Under the pieces are notes generated by a model. That model ran no database searches and was not told the origin of the DNA. It was given only the letters and a program-made list of their open reading frames with translations. Of a stretch of DNA of 64,000 bases, positions 32,668 through 64,000 are shown piece by piece (the first letter of the stretch is position 1; every line of letters begins with the position of its first letter). This DNA comes from an uncultured Candidatus Saccharibacteria bacterium (GTDB lineage: Bacteria > Patescibacteriota > Saccharimonadia > Saccharimonadales > EFPC-124), in the NCBI GenBank assembly GCA_964550035.1, contig CAZJVU010000001.1:147990-211989 (forward strand), read 5' to 3'. The translations under genes and the position numbers were made by a program.

Positions 32668-34032
32668 TTAGCACTTGGGGATGCCCGGTGGGCACTTGAC
32701 GCCGGTGGCCGGGGCGCTCGGCTTGGGAGCCGGCGTCTCGACCGGTTGGGTCGGCGTGTGCGTGACCGTCGGTTGGTGCGTTGTCGGGTGCGGGTCGTAA
32801 CTCGTCGGCGGGTCGGACGGCCGGGGTTCGGTCGTCGACGGCGCCGGCGGGTTGGGACCTCCTTGTGATGCGCACACCTTCGTCCCGTCCGCACATCCCT
32901 GCGCGGAAATCTTGGACTCGATGCACTTGCCGTTCTCGTTCTCGTGTTCCGACGGGATGCATTTCTGCGTCGTGGTCGGCGGAGAAGTCGGCGGCGTTGT
33001 CGTCCCCGGGGGCGGCGTGCTGCCGTGTGTCGACTGGCTCGGAGTGGGGATCGGCGTCGGGATCGGCTTGGACTTCGGCAGCCGCCACAGGTTGTGGCAG
33101 TCGACGAAGGCACCATTGTCGGTCTCGATGTCCTTGAACTGCTCCTTCTCGTCGAGGGTAACCTTTCCCAGCGAAACTCGAACCATCGACCGCGCGTCGA
33201 TGAACTGATCGCAGTGGTTGATGTTCAAGTGCCGGGTGTTGATGATCGAGTCGACTCGAACGATCGGCAGCGTGCCGACGTTGGGGTTGCCGTCGCTGGC
33301 AGCCTTCTGTCGAATCGCGTCGTCGTTCAGGGACGTGTTGACGGCGAGGATGAAGCGGTCGTCATGCTCCTTCTCCGTGGCCACGAACTTCGGGACGTCG
33401 GTGTCCCAGTTCATGGCGAGGTTGGAGTTGGCGCAGTCGGTGTACCACTTCTCTTTGCCGTACAGACCGTCCAGCTCGGACCAGCTGTTTGTCCGATGCG
33501 CATCCGCGGATGTCCCCGTGGTGACGGGTACGGTGCGGGCGTCGCGGTTGGACTCGCTGCCGGTGATGGGCTTGTCGGGCTGACCCCCGTAGATGATGGC
33601 CAGCGTCTTGGTCTTGCCGTCGACATCTGTCACGGTCGCCGTGGGGCTGTCCGTGCAGGTGCCCTTGACGACGGCGTCTGCCTTCGCGTCGAGTTCGGCC
33701 TTGCGGGTCTTCAGCGTGTCGTTCAGGGTCTTGAGCTCCGGCGCGGTGGCCGGGGCGGTGAATCCGAACTTGGTGATGCCGTCGTAGTTGCCGGACTGGG
33801 TCACGTCCTGGGCGGCGCGGGTGAACTCGTCGTCGACGATCTTCGCGTCGGCGCACGTCACGGCCGCGATGCCGGCGCTGATGTTGGGTGACTGGTAGGC
33901 TCCGCCGTTGCTTCCGGGTTTCATCCCGAGTGCAGCGCCGGTCACCACCAGTCCGGCCACCACCAGCGCGGCGATGGACGGTAGGGCCCAGCGCCGTCCT
34001 GTGGCTGTGGTCGGTGCGGTTGTGGCAGTCAT
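32668..34032 (-). CDS. Secreted hypothetical protein with Pro/Thr-rich linker and Cys-rich C-terminus (GC-rich cassette G)
   Basis: The ATG at 34030-34032 follows AAAGGAG. The N-terminus MTATTAPTTATGRRWALPSIAALVVAGLVVTGAALG is Tat/Sec-signal-like. The protein ends ...VKCPPGIPKC. Third codon positions are very GC-rich. Confidence 0.6.
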   Translation of the reverse strand: MTATTAPTTATGRRWALPSIAALVVAGLVVTGAALGMKPGSNGGAYQSPNISAGIAAVTCADAKIVDDEFTRAAQDVTQSGNYDGITKFGFTAPATAPELKTLNDTLKTRKAELDAKADAVVKGTCTDSPTATVTDVDGKTKTLAIIYGGQPDKPITGSESNRDARTVPVTTGTSADAHRTNSWSELDGLYGKEKWYTDCANSNLAMNWDTDVPKFVATEKEHDDRFILAVNTSLNDDAIRQKAASDGNPNVGTLPIVRVDSIINTRHLNINHCDQFIDARSMVRVSLGKVTLDEKEQFKDIETDNGAFVDCHNLWRLPKSKPIPTPIPTPSQSTHGSTPPPGTTTPPTSPPTTTQKCIPSEHENENGKCIESKISAQGCADGTKVCASQGGPNPPAPSTTEPRPSDPPTSYDPHPTTHQPTVTHTPTQPVETPAPKPSAPATGVKCPPGIPKC

Positions 34033-34394
34033 GGGGGCACTCCTTTCGTGTCGAAGCCCCAAGGGTTTGCCCGCTCTGACCGCGGGCGCGGTTTCAGATG
34101 TAATGCGGGCGGCTGCTAGAGGCCAGGGCACGGAGGAGCACTTAAGCTATACCGTGCCGCTCCTGTAAGGCGCAGCAGTGTATTCACCAAGGGCTTTGTT
34201 TTGCGGCAATGCCCATCGGCGAATACACTGCCACGCCTCAGATGGAGAGCGGCAGATAAAGTAAGCTAAAATGATCTGACTTGTCAAAGAGCTCTTCGTC
34301 TTGCTGTGCCTGATTCAAAATATAAAAAAAGCCGCATGGCTGCAGCTATCCTTACGCCTCTCCTCACACACTGCCGCAAAACGATGTCTTAGTA

Positions 34395-50402: not shown

Positions 50403-51218
50403 ATGTGCGTCACAGCAGAAGAGGCCGAAATCTCGGGAACGCGGACCTACGTCTACGCCACCGACCTGGGCAACGGCCCGGTGCACGTCTGCGGATACCA
50501 GAACGTGGCGGAGTCGCGGGCGGGCGGGAACTGCATGTTCCTCAACTTCGCCGGCACAAACCTGAAGATGGTTCAGGGGCCGGAGCGCACCGAGAGCCTC
50601 ATGGACGACATGACCTCGGAGCTGCCGCTCCTGGTCCCGCCGCCCGCGCTGAGGAGCCGTAGCGGTTCGTTCGGCGGATGGCGCAGTGCCACTGTAGAGG
50701 AATACGGCGACTACACGGTCGTCCTGGCGCAGCAGCCGGAGGACATGCTCCTCGCGCTCCGTCAGGTGCCGGAGAGCCGTCGTCCCGAGCGGACCCCGCG
50801 GCTGGAGGAGATGATCAGCTTCTACATGTCGTTCTACCCGTGGGACAGCTTCGCCCTGCCGTGCTTCGACGGGGCGGTCGCACCCACGCACCCGATCACG
50901 GTGAGGTATACGCCGCGCGATCCCAGAGTCCTGACCATTCCCGGTCTGGACGCGCACGACGGCAATCTGCCGGTGCGCGGCGCGCCGGTCTACCGCGACT
51001 TCCGGGTGGCGTTCGGCGTCCAGGGCATGGACCTGCCGCACAAGGTCGACTACACCGACTCCGGTGTGGGTGCCCAACCGTGGGCGCCGGACAGTGTGGC
51101 CGGGTTCGTCGACAACCGCAAGGACGGCCCCAACGGCGAGTACGTCATGCCGATCAAGGCCCTCCGTCGAGGGTGGACCGGCAGCAAGCTGGCCAAGAGG
51201 CTGGTCGCCGCCGTGTAA
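50403..51218 (+). CDS. Hypothetical cytoplasmic protein (GC-rich cassette K)
   Basis: 271-aa ORF with AAGGAG 7 nt upstream. The product starts Met-Cys. Third positions are GC-rich, and the alternative frames are Arg-rich artefacts. Confidence 0.55.
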   Translation: MCVTAEEAEISGTRTYVYATDLGNGPVHVCGYQNVAESRAGGNCMFLNFAGTNLKMVQGPERTESLMDDMTSELPLLVPPPALRSRSGSFGGWRSATVEEYGDYTVVLAQQPEDMLLALRQVPESRRPERTPRLEEMISFYMSFYPWDSFALPCFDGAVAPTHPITVRYTPRDPRVLTIPGLDAHDGNLPVRGAPVYRDFRVAFGVQGMDLPHKVDYTDSGVGAQPWAPDSVAGFVDNRKDGPNGEYVMPIKALRRGWTGSKLAKRLVAAV

Positions 51219-60935: not shown

Positions 60936-62015
60936 ATGAACGATTTTGATTTTGAGGAGTTGGATAAAGCGGTAAGTGACTTAGCAGTCAAAACGCAGGA
61001 CGAGCATAGCGACGTCGGTCTCGAGGCTGCTCCAGTATCTCTTGCCATCGCACGGAGTGACCCTCGGAAGCCAGAGCCAGTAGTAGTCAAAGCTACCGTG
61101 CCACGCAGCGAACCCCAGCCGACCGAATCAACATCGATTCCGGTCGCTACACCGCAGAAACACTCAGCGCGCCTGAGCGACACAAAACCCCGAAGCCGCG
61201 GTGCATTCATGGACATTGTGCCGCCCACGTCTCGCAAGCCTGGTGGCCGCGTGGGTGTGTTCATTCAGCCGGTAAACAAGCCAGAAGATGTTATGCCAGA
61301 AGAACCACAGAAGCAGTCCGAACCAGAAGCTCCTGCCTCTGAAGCAACTGTAGAACCCAAGCCGGAAGTGCCAACTTCTCAACCCGACACGCCTGAGACG
61401 AATATTCAGAAGAAGCCCCAAGAAGTGTCATGGCCTGACCCGCTCGATTTTGGCGCAGGCGAGAAAGACGACGCAGATAAGAAATCCCTCGAGCAAACCC
61501 AGCCCGAACCGCCCGTCACGCCTTTCCTTGCGGAGGCCAAGGTAGAAAAGCGACCGCTTGGCGCGTTCTCTAACTTTAAGCCTGCTGTTGAGCCAAAAGC
61601 TGAGGAGGCGCAAACGCCCGAAGAGCCCAAGCCGCACGACGAGCTAACGCCAGAAAAAGATGGTACGTTCAAAGAGCCTCAGCCCGAAAAGGAAAAGCCA
61701 GCCGAGCCAGAATCTCCTGAAGTTCCAGCGCCGCAAGAAGAGAAGTCGAGTAAGCCTACAGAGTCAGAGAAGCCTGATCTCCATAATCAAGCCATGATGT
61801 CCATCCCACAGCAATACCACACCGAGGCAAAGCTGGCCGACAAAGCTGCTCGTCCTGTCTTCGATACCAAAGAATATCACCCGCCCCTCGCCGAAGCAGC
61901 CGGTCATGAGCACCGAGGCGGCGGAAGCATGTGGGGCAAGATCTTTATCGCGTTTGTGGTGGTTGTGCTGCTCGCAGTTGCCGGGTATTTTGCCTACCTC
62001 TACGTTGCGCGATAG
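60936..62015 (+). CDS. Pro/Glu/Lys-rich tail-anchored protein (hypothetical)
   Basis: A low-complexity PE-rich body with a single C-terminal helix FIAFVVVVLLAVAGYFAYLYV. Confidence 0.5.
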   Translation: MNDFDFEELDKAVSDLAVKTQDEHSDVGLEAAPVSLAIARSDPRKPEPVVVKATVPRSEPQPTESTSIPVATPQKHSARLSDTKPRSRGAFMDIVPPTSRKPGGRVGVFIQPVNKPEDVMPEEPQKQSEPEAPASEATVEPKPEVPTSQPDTPETNIQKKPQEVSWPDPLDFGAGEKDDADKKSLEQTQPEPPVTPFLAEAKVEKRPLGAFSNFKPAVEPKAEEAQTPEEPKPHDELTPEKDGTFKEPQPEKEKPAEPESPEVPAPQEEKSSKPTESEKPDLHNQAMMSIPQQYHTEAKLADKAARPVFDTKEYHPPLAEAAGHEHRGGGSMWGKIFIAFVVVVLLAVAGYFAYLYVAR

Positions 62016-62086
62016 GAGCAAGAAGCTGTTTTGAGAATTCGCGTTTGCTCTGTGAACTGTCAAAATAGTTTCTTGTGTCGTATGGG

Positions 62087-62122
62087 GCGAGGGCGGCTCG
62101 GTTGTGCCGAACCATCCCTCGC
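62087..62122 (-). terminator. GC-rich imperfect hairpin after ORF 62129..62383
   Basis: GCGAGGG ... CCCTCGC outer stem, with inner GGTTCGG/CCGAGCC pairing. Confidence 0.4.
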
Positions 62123-62128
62123 CTCCAT

Positions 62129-62383
62129 TCAGTCGTTCCGTTGGTGGCGCAGAGTCTCCTCCACTACGTCGTCCAGCGACGCGATGCGTGCGTTGCGCTT
62201 CCGCTTGACCTGCCAGTAGCGGGCCTCGACCACCAACCAGATCAGAAGAACCGCGCAGCCCACGATGATGATCCATTTCGTGGACCACGGCTGGGACGTG
62301 TAGTCGAGCCACGTGTCGGTCACCACGATCGCCACCACCAGGAGCAGCACAGCAAAGCGACCGAGTTGTCGGAACAAACGCAT
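62129..62383 (-). CDS. Small two-TM membrane protein with a basic tail (GC-rich cassette L)
   Basis: 84 aa with GGAGG 6 nt upstream. It has helices FAVLLLVVAIVV and WIIIVGCAVLLIWLVV, then a KRKRN tail. It is divergent from the RelE-like ORF. Confidence 0.55.
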   Translation of the reverse strand: MRLFRQLGRFAVLLLVVAIVVTDTWLDYTSQPWSTKWIIIVGCAVLLIWLVVEARYWQVKRKRNARIASLDDVVEETLRHQRND

Positions 62384-62570
62384 GTCTTACCTCCAAGGGG
62401 AATGGATTCTTTGTTTATTTATAATAAAAACACATTTCAGTCAAGTGCATCAGTGGCTGCACTTGCTCGGCTGTGTCGCGGCCGGCTAGATTCTAGGCGT
62501 CTGTATTTTTGTCCAACAGCAAAGATCGTTATAATACAGGAGTCCGATTCGGCACGAGCAAAGGAGAACC

Positions 62571-62807
62571 ATGTCCTTCAACGTGAAGGTGCTGCCCGAC
62601 GCCCAGACTGCCATGAGGAGTCGCCCGCACAGCGTCCAGGAAGCGATCAAGACCATCCTGCGTGGCGACCTGGCGACTCGTCCGGAAGAGGTGGGCGCGG
62701 CCCTGCAGGAGCCCTTCGTCGGCTGCCGCTCGCTGAGCCGCGGGGGCTACGAGATCATCTACCGGGTGGCGGGCGACGAGGTGCACGTCCTGAGCATCTC
62801 GCAGTGA
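62571..62807 (+). CDS. RelE/ParE-superfamily toxin-like protein, short form (GC-rich cassette M)
   Basis: LRGDLATRPEEVGAALQEPFVGCRSLSRGGYEIIYRVAGDEVHVLSI matches the xLxxxPxxxGxxLxGxLxGxxSxRxGxYRxxYxV pattern of actinobacterial RelE proteins. AAAGGAG lies upstream, with TATAAT at 62530-62535. Confidence 0.65.
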   Translation: MSFNVKVLPDAQTAMRSRPHSVQEAIKTILRGDLATRPEEVGAALQEPFVGCRSLSRGGYEIIYRVAGDEVHVLSISQ

Positions 62808-62833
62808 CGCCGAGCTCCTAGGCGGCCGGACAC

Positions 62834-62865
62834 GGGCAGGACCAACTGACACGTTGGTCCTGCCC
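62834..62865 (+). terminator. Perfect 13-bp GC-rich hairpin after cassette M
   Basis: GGGCAGGACCAAC-tgacac-GTTGGTCCTGCCC. Confidence 0.5.
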
Positions 62866-62915
62866 GCAACTCCATTCTAGATACAATAATTTCAGTACTA
62901 TATTTTGTGGTGTGG

Positions 62916-62944
62916 GCGGGGCTCGTTCAGCTGACGAGCCCCGC
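62916..62944 (-). terminator. GC-rich hairpin after cassette N
   Basis: GCGGGGCTCGT-tcagctg-ACGAGCCCCGC. Confidence 0.5.
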
Positions 62945-62952
62945 ACCGCGAT

Positions 62953-63186
62953 TCAGGCCTCGGGGCGACCCTGCTTGCGTCGACGCCCGCGCCGCCACGC
63001 CCGCGCCATGAGCCAGATGATTCCCAGACCGAGCACGATCCCCAGCACCGTGTTGAGCCAGGGCACGTGAACGTTGAGGAAATCGTCGATTTGTCGGGGC
63101 TCAAAGACCGTGACCACGAGAGCCACCACGATCAAGATGCAGACCCCGATGTTGCCGAGGATTTTTTTCACCGAACGGCGTTCCAT
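62953..63186 (-). CDS. Small two-TM membrane protein with a basic tail (GC-rich cassette N)
   Basis: The ATG at 63186 (MERRSVKK...) follows GGAGGT. It has helices IGVCILIVVALVVTVF and VLGIVLGLGIIWLMA, then an RRGRRRK tail. The architecture is the same as 62129..62383. Confidence 0.55.
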   Translation of the reverse strand: MERRSVKKILGNIGVCILIVVALVVTVFEPRQIDDFLNVHVPWLNTVLGIVLGLGIIWLMARAWRRGRRRKQGRPEA

Positions 63187-63316
63187 TGGTACCTCCGTTG
63201 TCGATGGGAACTGAGTTAAAATATCATGATATAGCAAATGACGCAACTAGTGAGCTGACTCCGCCGCGTACGCTATACTAGGACAGTCGATACTAGGGCG
63301 AGATTGAGGAGTTTTG

Positions 63317-63559
63317 ATGGCGGCATACCAGGTGAAGGTGACGGACGAAGCCCGCGACGGATACAACGGTTTTTCGCGGGCAGTCACGCCGGCGATCTTC
63401 AACACTCTGGAGGGTGACCTGTCCGAACGGCCCAACGAAGTTGGTACGGCTCTGGTCGGTCGGCTCGCCGGTACTCGGTCACTGACGAGGGGAAGTTACA
63501 AGATCCACTACAAAGTCGAAGGCAAGACTGTGCTGATCATCGACATCACTCGTCGCTGA
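63317..63559 (+). CDS. RelE/ParE-superfamily toxin-like protein, short form (GC-rich cassette O)
   Basis: LEGDLSERPNEVGTALVGRLAGTRSLTRGSYKIHYKVEGKTVLIIDITRR is a clear paralog of 62571..62807. GAGGAG lies 5 nt upstream of the ATG at 63317. Confidence 0.65.
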   Translation: MAAYQVKVTDEARDGYNGFSRAVTPAIFNTLEGDLSERPNEVGTALVGRLAGTRSLTRGSYKIHYKVEGKTVLIIDITRR

Positions 63560-63563
63560 GCGT

Positions 63564-63599
63564 CGTCCCGCCCGCGAGCTATGGCTCGCGGGCGGGACG
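63564..63599 (+). terminator. Perfect 16-bp GC-rich hairpin after cassette O
   Basis: CGTCCCGCCCGCGAGC-tatg-GCTCGCGGGCGGGACG. Confidence 0.55.
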
Positions 63600-63649
63600 C
63601 ACAAAATTACAACTCCGCTATCGACCTGCCTACGCTACAATAAAAAGCG

Positions 63650-64000
63650 ATGATTGATTACCTTCTGGACGAACTCAACCCAGAGCAGCGTGCTGCTGCC
63701 GAACAGACTGATGGCCCGGTGCTTATCCTGGCCGGTGCCGGCTCAGGCAAAACTAAAACATTGACGCATCGCATCGCTTACCTCATTGCCAAGAGGGGAG
63801 TGCGCCCAGAGAATATCCTGGCCGTGACGTTTACCAACAAAGCTGCCAAAGAGATGCGCGAACGCCTTGGCAAACTGCTAGGCCGCGCCGGTAATGATCG
63901 AAGTTTCATGCCGTTTATGGGCACATTCCACAGTATTTGCGTGCGATTACTACGGTTCGATGGCGAGTCGATTGGCGTGCCAAAGAACTACGTTATCTTT
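63650..64000 (+). CDS. uvrD: UvrD/PcrA-type ATP-dependent DNA helicase (N-terminal 117 codons; continues beyond the window)
   Basis: [10 protein letters not shown], Walker [20 protein letters not shown], and [14 protein letters not shown]. Confidence 0.85.

Follow-up and report, generated by a model that had tools for sequence, protein, structure and literature searches.

Solitary, truncated RelE-family genes in an accessory-gene slot of Saccharibacteria

How can genes for RelE-like toxins persist with no antitoxin beside them? The question is raised by a short interval in a 64,000-nucleotide stretch of DNA, the window analysed here, from an uncultured Candidatus Saccharibacteria bacterium (assembly GCA_964550035.1, contig CAZJVU010000001.1, positions 147,990 to 211,989 of the forward strand). 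Two genes on the + strand, R1 and R2, encode RelE-like proteins and alternate with two on the - strand, TM1 and TM2, whose small products carry two transmembrane (TM) segments each. A preliminary description of this DNA had read the four as two diverged copies of a divergent pair, in each of which a toxin would work together with a membrane partner, and an open reading frame (ORF) listing of the window verified all four genes at the coordinates given there. The answer towards which we lean is a different one: R1 and R2 are probably disarmed RelE-derived genes, self-standing single-gene units in an accessory-gene hotspot, with the TM genes as separate occupants.

RelE-family membership and the degenerate active site

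By homology and by fold, R1 and R2 are genuine members of the RelE family. The two are paralogs, identical at 31 of 77 positions (40%, as had been estimated; BLASTP E 7e-19), and a protein identical to R1 occurs in an independent assembly (L001). Single-protein scores are low: PF05016 gives 19.7 bits for R1 and 13.7 bits for R2 against a cut-off of 23, and TIGR02385 (RelE_StbE) gives R2 16 bits against 27.9. Sub-threshold PF05016 matches recur in seven of the eight members of the subfamily to which R1 and R2 belong (best E 6.3e-5), and a profile of the eight reaches Mycobacterium tuberculosis RelE2 (Rv2866; PDB 3g5o) at E 2.2e-12, RelE1 (PDB 9g12) at E 5.5e-10 and Escherichia coli RelE at E 2.4e-4. 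An AlphaFold2 model of R1 (mean predicted confidence, pLDDT, 90) shows the order beta-alpha-alpha-beta-beta-beta, and its top Foldseek match is 3g5o_B (TM-score 0.96, root-mean-square deviation 0.9 A), followed by other RelE, YoeB, YafQ and ParE structures; the multiple sequence alignment behind the model was dominated by RelE homologs, which leaves it not fully independent of the sequence result. Profile and structure checks alike thus uphold the RelE-like assignment of the preliminary description.

The subfamily is a small one. An alignment query returned only eight close relatives among 5.8 billion clustered proteins, R1 or R2 as single queries in word-indexed searches matched only themselves, and what lies beyond the subfamily, in a profile search of 1.84 billion representative proteins, are remote RelE-like proteins with an HRxxxYR tail. 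Three very long repeat proteins (P0005, P0014 and P0020; 1022-2644 aa) scored up to E 1.7e-17 against a two-sequence R profile through many repeated stretches and were rejected as relatives; the P0005 and P0014 sequences, on inspection, proved to be low-complexity or repeat artefacts rather than RelE domains. Among PHROGs there is a weak "RelE-like toxin" match for R, one scan of viral contigs each gave no match for R or TM2, and no defence model of PADLOC-DB matched R1 or R2. Within the subfamily, a neighbour-joining tree and pairwise identities set the position-1 genes (R1, P0153, P0010 and P0004) apart from the position-2 genes (R2, P0003 and P0152), with bootstrap values of 80% for the R2 clade (with P0003 and P0152) and a weak 49% for the R1 clade, consistent with positional orthology. 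R1 and R2 arose long ago by duplication of one RelE-family gene, of a kind akin to mycobacterial RelE1/RelE2, and the duplication appears to be older than the divergence of the genomes that now carry the copies. What is new here is a small, conserved, truncated, monocistronic RelE subfamily, so far only in a few Saccharibacteria-like genomes.

Whether such proteins could be toxic depends on residues defined elsewhere. In M. tuberculosis RelE1 the substitutions R60A, R65A, R85A and Y89A each significantly affect toxicity, and the four residues correspond to K54, R61, R81 and Y87 of E. coli RelE (PMC12620021). Their equivalents were mapped by aligning the R family onto RelE1 (Table 1). The last residue of R1 aligns with RelE1 R84, one short of the catalytic R85, and R2 ends on the R85-equivalent Arg itself, four residues before Y89. 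The proteins are therefore truncated, as the preliminary description had it, although the distance it gave, 10-15 residues short of the catalytic Arg/Tyr segment, needs correcting. All eight members stop before the Tyr matching Y89, and the helix that would bear this catalytic residue is missing from the C-terminus throughout the subfamily. The stop codon is TGA, TAG or TAA depending on the member, and the truncation is therefore genuine; read-through or recoding of UGA was considered and set aside, with three stop codons in use and no Tyr in an extension past the TGA of R1.

Table 1. Equivalents in R-family members of the RelE1 residues that affect toxicity
Protein	R60	R65	R85	Y89
R1	S	E	absent	absent
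R2	T	K	R (last residue)	absent
P0021	V	A	V	absent
P0153	R	R	K	absent
P0010	R	R	H	absent
P0003	T	R	R	absent

R1 and P0021 have lost all four of these residues, and R2 keeps only the R85 equivalent, with Lys in place of R65. Three further basic positions of RelE1 (R17, K47 and R50) are also mostly replaced in the R family; R53 and R57 are conserved and retained. An active site that is degenerate, and degenerate differently from member to member, argues that catalysis is no longer selected, and the mapping onto RelE1 and E. coli RelE suggests that the R proteins are not RelE-type RNase toxins. With none of the RelE1 toxicity residues in R1 and a variable set across the family, the label of toxin, once the catalytic residues are checked, would no longer apply.

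The genes nevertheless appear to be maintained in spite of this decay of the active site. Pairwise dN/dS is 0.40 for P0003/P0152 and 0.17 for the P0010 pair, compared with 0.39 for the TM2 pair and about 0.8 in TM1 comparisons; more divergent pairs are saturated. We infer moderate purifying selection on the R proteins as small soluble RelE-fold proteins. Their origin is less uniform in its signature. GC content at third codon positions (GC3; given for each gene in Table 2) averages 0.648 +/- 0.073 over 38 long ORFs of the window, and judged by this measure the R gene was probably acquired horizontally; the value for R2 lies near the window mean, so R2 is not a compositional outlier. Elsewhere in the window, two ORFs with no Pfam match, at 32668-34131 (-) and 50403-51218 (+), have GC3 values of 0.84 and 0.89 and may be horizontally acquired; ORFs overlapping the latter on both strands leave its true frame ambiguous.

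Upstream regions and the search for an antitoxin

The spacers upstream of R1 and R2 are 187 and 130 nt long, as first described, and no credible antitoxin ORF is found among their + strand ORFs of at least 20 aa. Those that touch the spacers are a 25-aa TTG ORF over the R1 start, a 31-aa TTG ORF in the TM2-R2 spacer, a 37-aa TTG ORF lying out of frame over the R2 start, and long frames antisense to the TM genes. Candidates for a hidden antitoxin near R1, namely 58-aa and 25-aa + strand ORFs and long ORFs antisense to R1, have neither a Shine-Dalgarno (SD) site nor conservation, overlap real genes and were rejected. Absence of an upstream ORF extends to all eight R genes. A hidden Markov model built from the antitoxins of P0154 and P0155 found no PhdYeFM-like sequence in a six-frame translation of the 64-kb window or in related loci, and Rfam gave no match in 61500-64000 at E values up to 1. 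P0154 and P0155 themselves provide the control: they are the nearest full-length relatives, and each has a PhdYeFM antitoxin gene upstream that overlaps the toxin start.

What does precede the R genes is a compact and recurrent set of signals. In an alignment of the 84 nt that precede each of the eight known R genes, a GCTATAAT-like element lies about 37-45 nt before the start codon in every one, followed 6-8 nt downstream in most of them (window, L002, L004, L005 and L065) by a GTCC(G/A) motif, which is retained in the relocated L004 copy discussed below. A GAGGAG-type SD is present upstream of all R genes except P0021. Beyond the promoter-like element, the leader and the SD, no other conserved element was found in these eight regions. 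From its placement, GTCC(G/A) may be a leader or start-site element that moves together with the gene. Since every R gene has its own GCTATAAT-like element and leader, the solo, monocistronic state characterises the entire subfamily and is not peculiar to this genome.

The three small repeats noted earlier in the spacers can all be read directly where they were reported (Table 2). As a conserved operator, the spacer palindrome fails: that of the window is not conserved, and L002 has unrelated sequence in its place. In L002 the interval from the TM1-like gene to the first R gene holds instead a perfect inverted repeat, 32 nt long with 49 nt between its arms (L002:4118-4230), possibly a structured RNA or the remnant of a mobile element.

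These observations suggest how the opening question might be answered, namely that no antitoxin would be needed because the R proteins, as predicted from their residues, would not be RelE-type RNase toxins. We envisage that a RelE-family gene entered the lineage, perhaps horizontally, and then duplicated early, and that the R lineage may have lost its PhdYeFM-type antitoxin together with toxicity. The C-terminal helix with the catalytic Tyr would have gone subfamily-wide, the other key Arg positions being replaced member by member. In such proteins the groove over which helix alpha3 or RelB ordinarily lies would be left open, which could permit a non-catalytic binding role; such a role is, by inference, the most likely one for the R proteins.

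A shared slot with changing occupants

The order PGK-TIM-P359-UvrD is widely conserved in Saccharibacteria. P359 (60936-62015 in the window), 359 aa long and rich in Pro, Glu and Lys, has one TM anchor at its C-terminus and matches no Pfam domain, and its gene adjoins that of TIM across many Saccharibacteria; here the P359 ORF starts directly after tpiA, at a 4-nt spacing. From P359 to uvrD/pcrA, which occupies 63650 onward, the gap in the window is taken up by TM1(-), R1(+), TM2(-) and R2(+) (Table 2).

Table 2. Features of the P359-uvrD gap in the window
Feature	Position	Strand	Description
TM1 hairpin, putative terminator	62082..62128	-	directly 3' of TM1 stop; GC-rich, no U-tract; -36.7 kcal/mol, z -7.6, 0/200 shuffles as stable
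TM1	62129..62383	-	84 aa; two TM segments, basic N-terminus, basic/charged C-tail; GGAGG 7 nt before ATG; GC3 0.85
TM1-R1 divergent spacer	62384..62570		187 nt, AT-rich
Palindrome CAAGTGCA-N8-TGCACTTG	62442-62465		in TM1-R1 spacer
Small repeat CTAGATTCTAG	62486-62496		in TM1-R1 spacer
R1 -10-like TATAAT	62530-62535		in TM1-R1 spacer
R1 leader motif GTCCG	62542-62546		in TM1-R1 spacer
R1 SD AGGAG	62562-62566		in TM1-R1 spacer
R1	62571..62807	+	78-aa RelE-fold protein; GC3 0.91
R1 hairpin, putative terminator	62833..62866	+	perfect 14-bp stem; -38.9 kcal/mol, z -4.9
TM2 hairpin, putative terminator	62916..62944	-	perfect 11-bp stem 3' of TM2 stop; -27.4 kcal/mol, z -4.5
TM2	62953..63186	-	77-aa two-TM protein; basic N-terminus, Arg-rich tail; GGAGG 5 nt before ATG; GC3 0.81
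TM2-R2 divergent spacer	63187..63316		130 nt
R2 -10-like TATACT	63274-63279		in TM2-R2 spacer
Direct repeat ATACTAGG-N7-ATACTAGG	63275-63297		in TM2-R2 spacer
R2 GTCGA	63286-63290		in TM2-R2 spacer
R2 SD GAGGAG	63306-63311		in TM2-R2 spacer
R2	63317..63559	+	80-aa RelE-fold paralog of R1; GC3 0.70
R2 hairpin, putative terminator	63564..63599	+	perfect 16-bp stem; -39.8 kcal/mol, z -7.8

The slot consists of four separate single-gene units, each with its own SD and its own hairpin, and the R genes with their own conserved -10-like element. All four SD sites are of the GGAGG/AGGAG type, and the GC-rich hairpin 3' of each gene is far more stable than expected (-27 to -40 kcal/mol, z -4.5 to -7.8), with no shuffled sequence in 200 as stable in any case; a terminator scan passed over these hairpins because none has a U-tract. 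Of the four GC-rich cassettes with terminators originally proposed, the SD sites and strong hairpins stand; the GC3 of R2 is unexceptional. Integron-like cassettes were ruled out, since gene orientation alternates, the genes have promoter-like elements of their own and the perfect GC stems are unlike attC sites. The R2 hairpin is followed by a conserved uvrD upstream region (AAATTACAAC...GCTACAATAAAAAGCGATG), a right flank common to L002 and L005.

In related genomes the same gap is variously filled. It is shorter than 110 nt in six loci; two others hold one GC-rich (65-73% GC) HbpS-like gene each (PF03928; L010:9187-9702 and L012:9071-9607), and L013:7431-10127 is a 2.7-kb insert with an HbpS-like gene plus several more long GC-rich ORFs. 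Given that the gap is empty in some loci and holds other GC-rich genes elsewhere, we regard it as an accessory-gene hotspot. Where R or TM genes are present, their combinations differ. L002 has TM1(-), P0010(+) and P0003(+), and thus an R2-type gene without TM2; L005 has P0153(+) and TM2(-), an R1-type gene without TM1, and its TM2 is convergent, not divergent, with the R gene. L063/L064 carry TM1'(-), TM2'(-) and P0021(+) plus a 164-aa gene, so that TM1 occurs in L063 without an R1-type gene, and L007 has only a TM1-like gene and no R gene at all. Nothing recognisable is left in L008. The 164-aa ORF of L063 (L063:2003-2497), which is GC-rich, has no Pfam match and its own hairpin, and lies between P0021 and a downstream + strand gene, appears to be another cargo gene of the hotspot. 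These arrangements fit one ancestral four-gene order followed by independent losses of single genes.

The clearest separation of R from TM genes lies outside the slot. P0004, in L004, is the only R gene found outside the hotspot, and a second copy of it (L066) was the sole result of a metagenome scan. It is a complete unit of promoter-like element, leader, ORF and hairpin, 63% GC in a neighbourhood of about 44% GC, flanked by an MFS transporter gene on one side and an unrelated gene on the other, with neither a TM neighbour nor an antitoxin. Because relatives carry different subsets of the genes, the TM-R pairs are not obligate units; the divergent pair that had been proposed as a functional unit on the strength of its two copies is not borne out by a survey of gene neighbourhoods, with losses of single genes in L002, L005, L063 and L007 and a solo P0004 in L004/L066. 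No support was found for a functional partnership between R and TM proteins.

The TM proteins themselves bear out the matching architecture reported for them. Hydropathy gives each two hydrophobic segments of at least 17 residues, a basic N-terminus and a basic tail; their sequence similarity is borderline (BLASTP E 0.011; hhalign probability 78% using orthologs). TM1 matches no Pfam, NCBIfam or PADLOC family at threshold, and PADLOC returned for the TM proteins only TM-segment matches at E > 0.01. The actinobacterial-type families DUF2530 (PF10745), 8xMP (PF24838) and DUF202 (PF02656), which resemble TM1 and TM2 in length and two-TM hairpin architecture, were matched below threshold (E 8e-4 to 5e-3), as was a pilin-like family; these matches differ between orthologs, are most likely compositional and were not accepted. 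TM2 also has a weak holin-like PHROG match (E 0.01), PHROG matches of the TM proteins being otherwise noise. Neither protein belongs to a family described so far. TM1 has orthologs at the same position in L002, L007 and L063, and TM2 has one in L005 that is 64% identical, the pair for which dN/dS is given above, and a more distant one in L063; the C-terminal tails are not conserved among orthologs. The TM genes encode separate small inner-membrane proteins that share the slot by common descent and are probably not dedicated partners of R.

Competing explanations and known systems

Several points weigh against taking R1 and R2 as disarmed single-gene units. P0153, P0010 and P0003 keep two of the four key residues along with conservative replacements, active sites in the RelE family are notoriously plastic, and residual or altered RNase activity is possible; non-toxicity is thus a prediction from residue mapping. 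Every hotspot locus with an R gene also has at least one TM gene, and neutralisation of R by either TM protein is possible. The search for an antitoxin acting in trans covered 64 kb of the genome. Composition does not support a foreign origin for R2, the GC3 of which is inside the host range, and purifying selection implies a function of some kind. Finally, arguments for and against linkage rest on small numbers, about six distinct loci, all but one of which share ancestry.

Some of these points could be turned into alternatives in which the R proteins remain toxic. We think it unlikely that R1 and R2 are active toxins of altered specificity checked by an antitoxin from another part of the genome, or by an RNA or antisense element that escaped recognition. 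Orphan toxin homologs without an adjacent antitoxin are known, some of them toxic in E. coli (PMC3141249), and such an explanation would suit the purifying selection on the R genes, the continued conservation of R53 and R57 and the 64-kb compass of the search. It sits poorly with the absence of any PhdYeFM-like sequence from the window and related loci and of any Rfam RNA, with upstream conservation that is limited to the promoter-like element, leader and SD, and with the loss of Y89 in all members and of all four key residues in R1 and P0021; moreover, P0004, which stands alone in a different genome, would require a separate trans antitoxin. It is less probable still that R1 and R2 are active, or conditionally active, toxins for which the divergent two-TM proteins serve as unconventional neutralisers, sensors or co-effectors, the whole being a new module in two diverged copies. 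Two TM(-)/R(+) divergent pairs do lie in the window, a TM gene is divergent from an R gene in L002 and L063 as well, none of the four hotspot loci that have an R gene is without a TM gene, and with helix alpha3 gone the groove taken by RelB in RelBE complexes would be open. Yet these co-occurrences are not independent evidence of linkage, because all of them belong to one syntenic locus of a single lineage, and in the one independent relocation R moved without a TM gene. The R2-type gene without TM2 in L002, the R1-type gene without TM1 in L005, the TM1 without an R1-type gene in L063 or any R gene in L007, the unconserved TM tails and spacer palindromes and the loss of toxicity residues all point the same way. 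A looser variant, in which truncated R and two-TM proteins form a loosely organised system that complements in trans and is limited to a Saccharibacteria lineage, with R docking through its exposed RelB groove on the membrane partner or on a RelB-like protein of the actinobacterial host, is in our estimation equally a long shot; if true, it would mean that a RelE scaffold was repurposed for a non-toxin role in an episymbiont.

Two other explanations reassign or remove the function. Reversing the roles, along the lines of type V systems, would make the two-TM proteins membrane-damaging toxins that the RelE-fold proteins counteract, for instance through binding or cleavage of the toxin mRNA or through binding of the toxin itself. 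The small two-TM architecture with basic termini is reminiscent of known small membrane toxins, TM2 has its weak holin-like match, and an R gene alone, as in L004, is what one would expect of an orphan antitoxin; we nonetheless consider the idea very improbable, given that TM1 persists alone in L007, that L063 has two TM genes to one R gene, that the R active sites are degenerate, that the genes form separate transcription units with no conserved shared operator and that the TM family matches are sub-threshold and not reproducible among orthologs. Alternatively, the R and TM genes may have no function and be decaying leftovers of an island that was acquired horizontally and is being lost. Patchy presence with independent losses among close relatives, very few homologs among 5.8 billion proteins, the degenerate active site and the TM1 dN/dS of about 0.8 would all be in keeping with decay. 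What makes it unlikely is that ORFs, SD sites, promoter-like elements and hairpins are intact across proteins only 32-56% identical, that the closest R and TM2 pairs have dN/dS values of 0.17-0.40, and that both duplicate copies persist even though the R1/R2 duplication predates the divergence of the genomes.

If R1 and R2 are indeed disarmed derivatives, they offer a clean case of a RelE-family gene persisting under selection as a single-gene unit after the loss of both antitoxin and catalytic machinery. More broadly, a call of "toxin without antitoxin" made from sequence alone can conceal a disarmed derivative. The P359-uvrD gap, as a recurrent slot for GC-rich accessory genes, is of interest for the uptake of foreign genes by episymbionts with very small genomes, and a binding role for R, if true, would show the recycling of toxin folds from toxin-antitoxin (TA) systems. 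On present evidence the interest is modest and for the specialist.

Among known systems, the type II relBE toxins RelE1 (Rv1246c, PDB 9g12) and RelE2/RelG (Rv2866, PDB 3g5o) of M. tuberculosis are the best sequence and structural matches (TM-score 0.92-0.96), sharing with the R proteins the beta-alpha-alpha-beta-beta-beta core and the motif RP.xVG...RS.xRG.Y.I.Y. In contrast to them, the R proteins have no upstream RelB/PhdYeFM antitoxin and no C-terminal Y89 helix, equivalents of R60, R65 and R85 are variably or wholly lost, R17, K47 and R50 are mostly replaced, and the genes are monocistronic with a promoter-like element of their own. Another comparison is with the type V system GhoT/GhoS, a small two-TM membrane toxin and its RNase antitoxin. 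The presence of a small two-TM protein beside a small protein of RNase-type fold resembles that pair, as an analogy and not as membership (PMC4344625). The fold of GhoS differs from that of R and ghoST forms an operon, whereas each R or TM gene is a unit of its own, divergent from or convergent with its neighbour, these genes are lost independently, and no intact RNase site is present.

A further parallel is offered by the solitary homologs of the RelE/ParE superfamily that surveys of TA genes across genomes have described (Leplae et al. 2011, PMC3141249), which resemble the R genes in having no recognisable adjacent antitoxin. Throughout the small R subfamily, which is under purifying selection, members keep the solo state, the truncated form and a promoter-like element and leader of their own. 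Because solo state and truncation are conserved while the active site has degenerated, the R genes are probably better understood as a disarmed derivative of the RelE family than as active toxins that happen to be unpaired.

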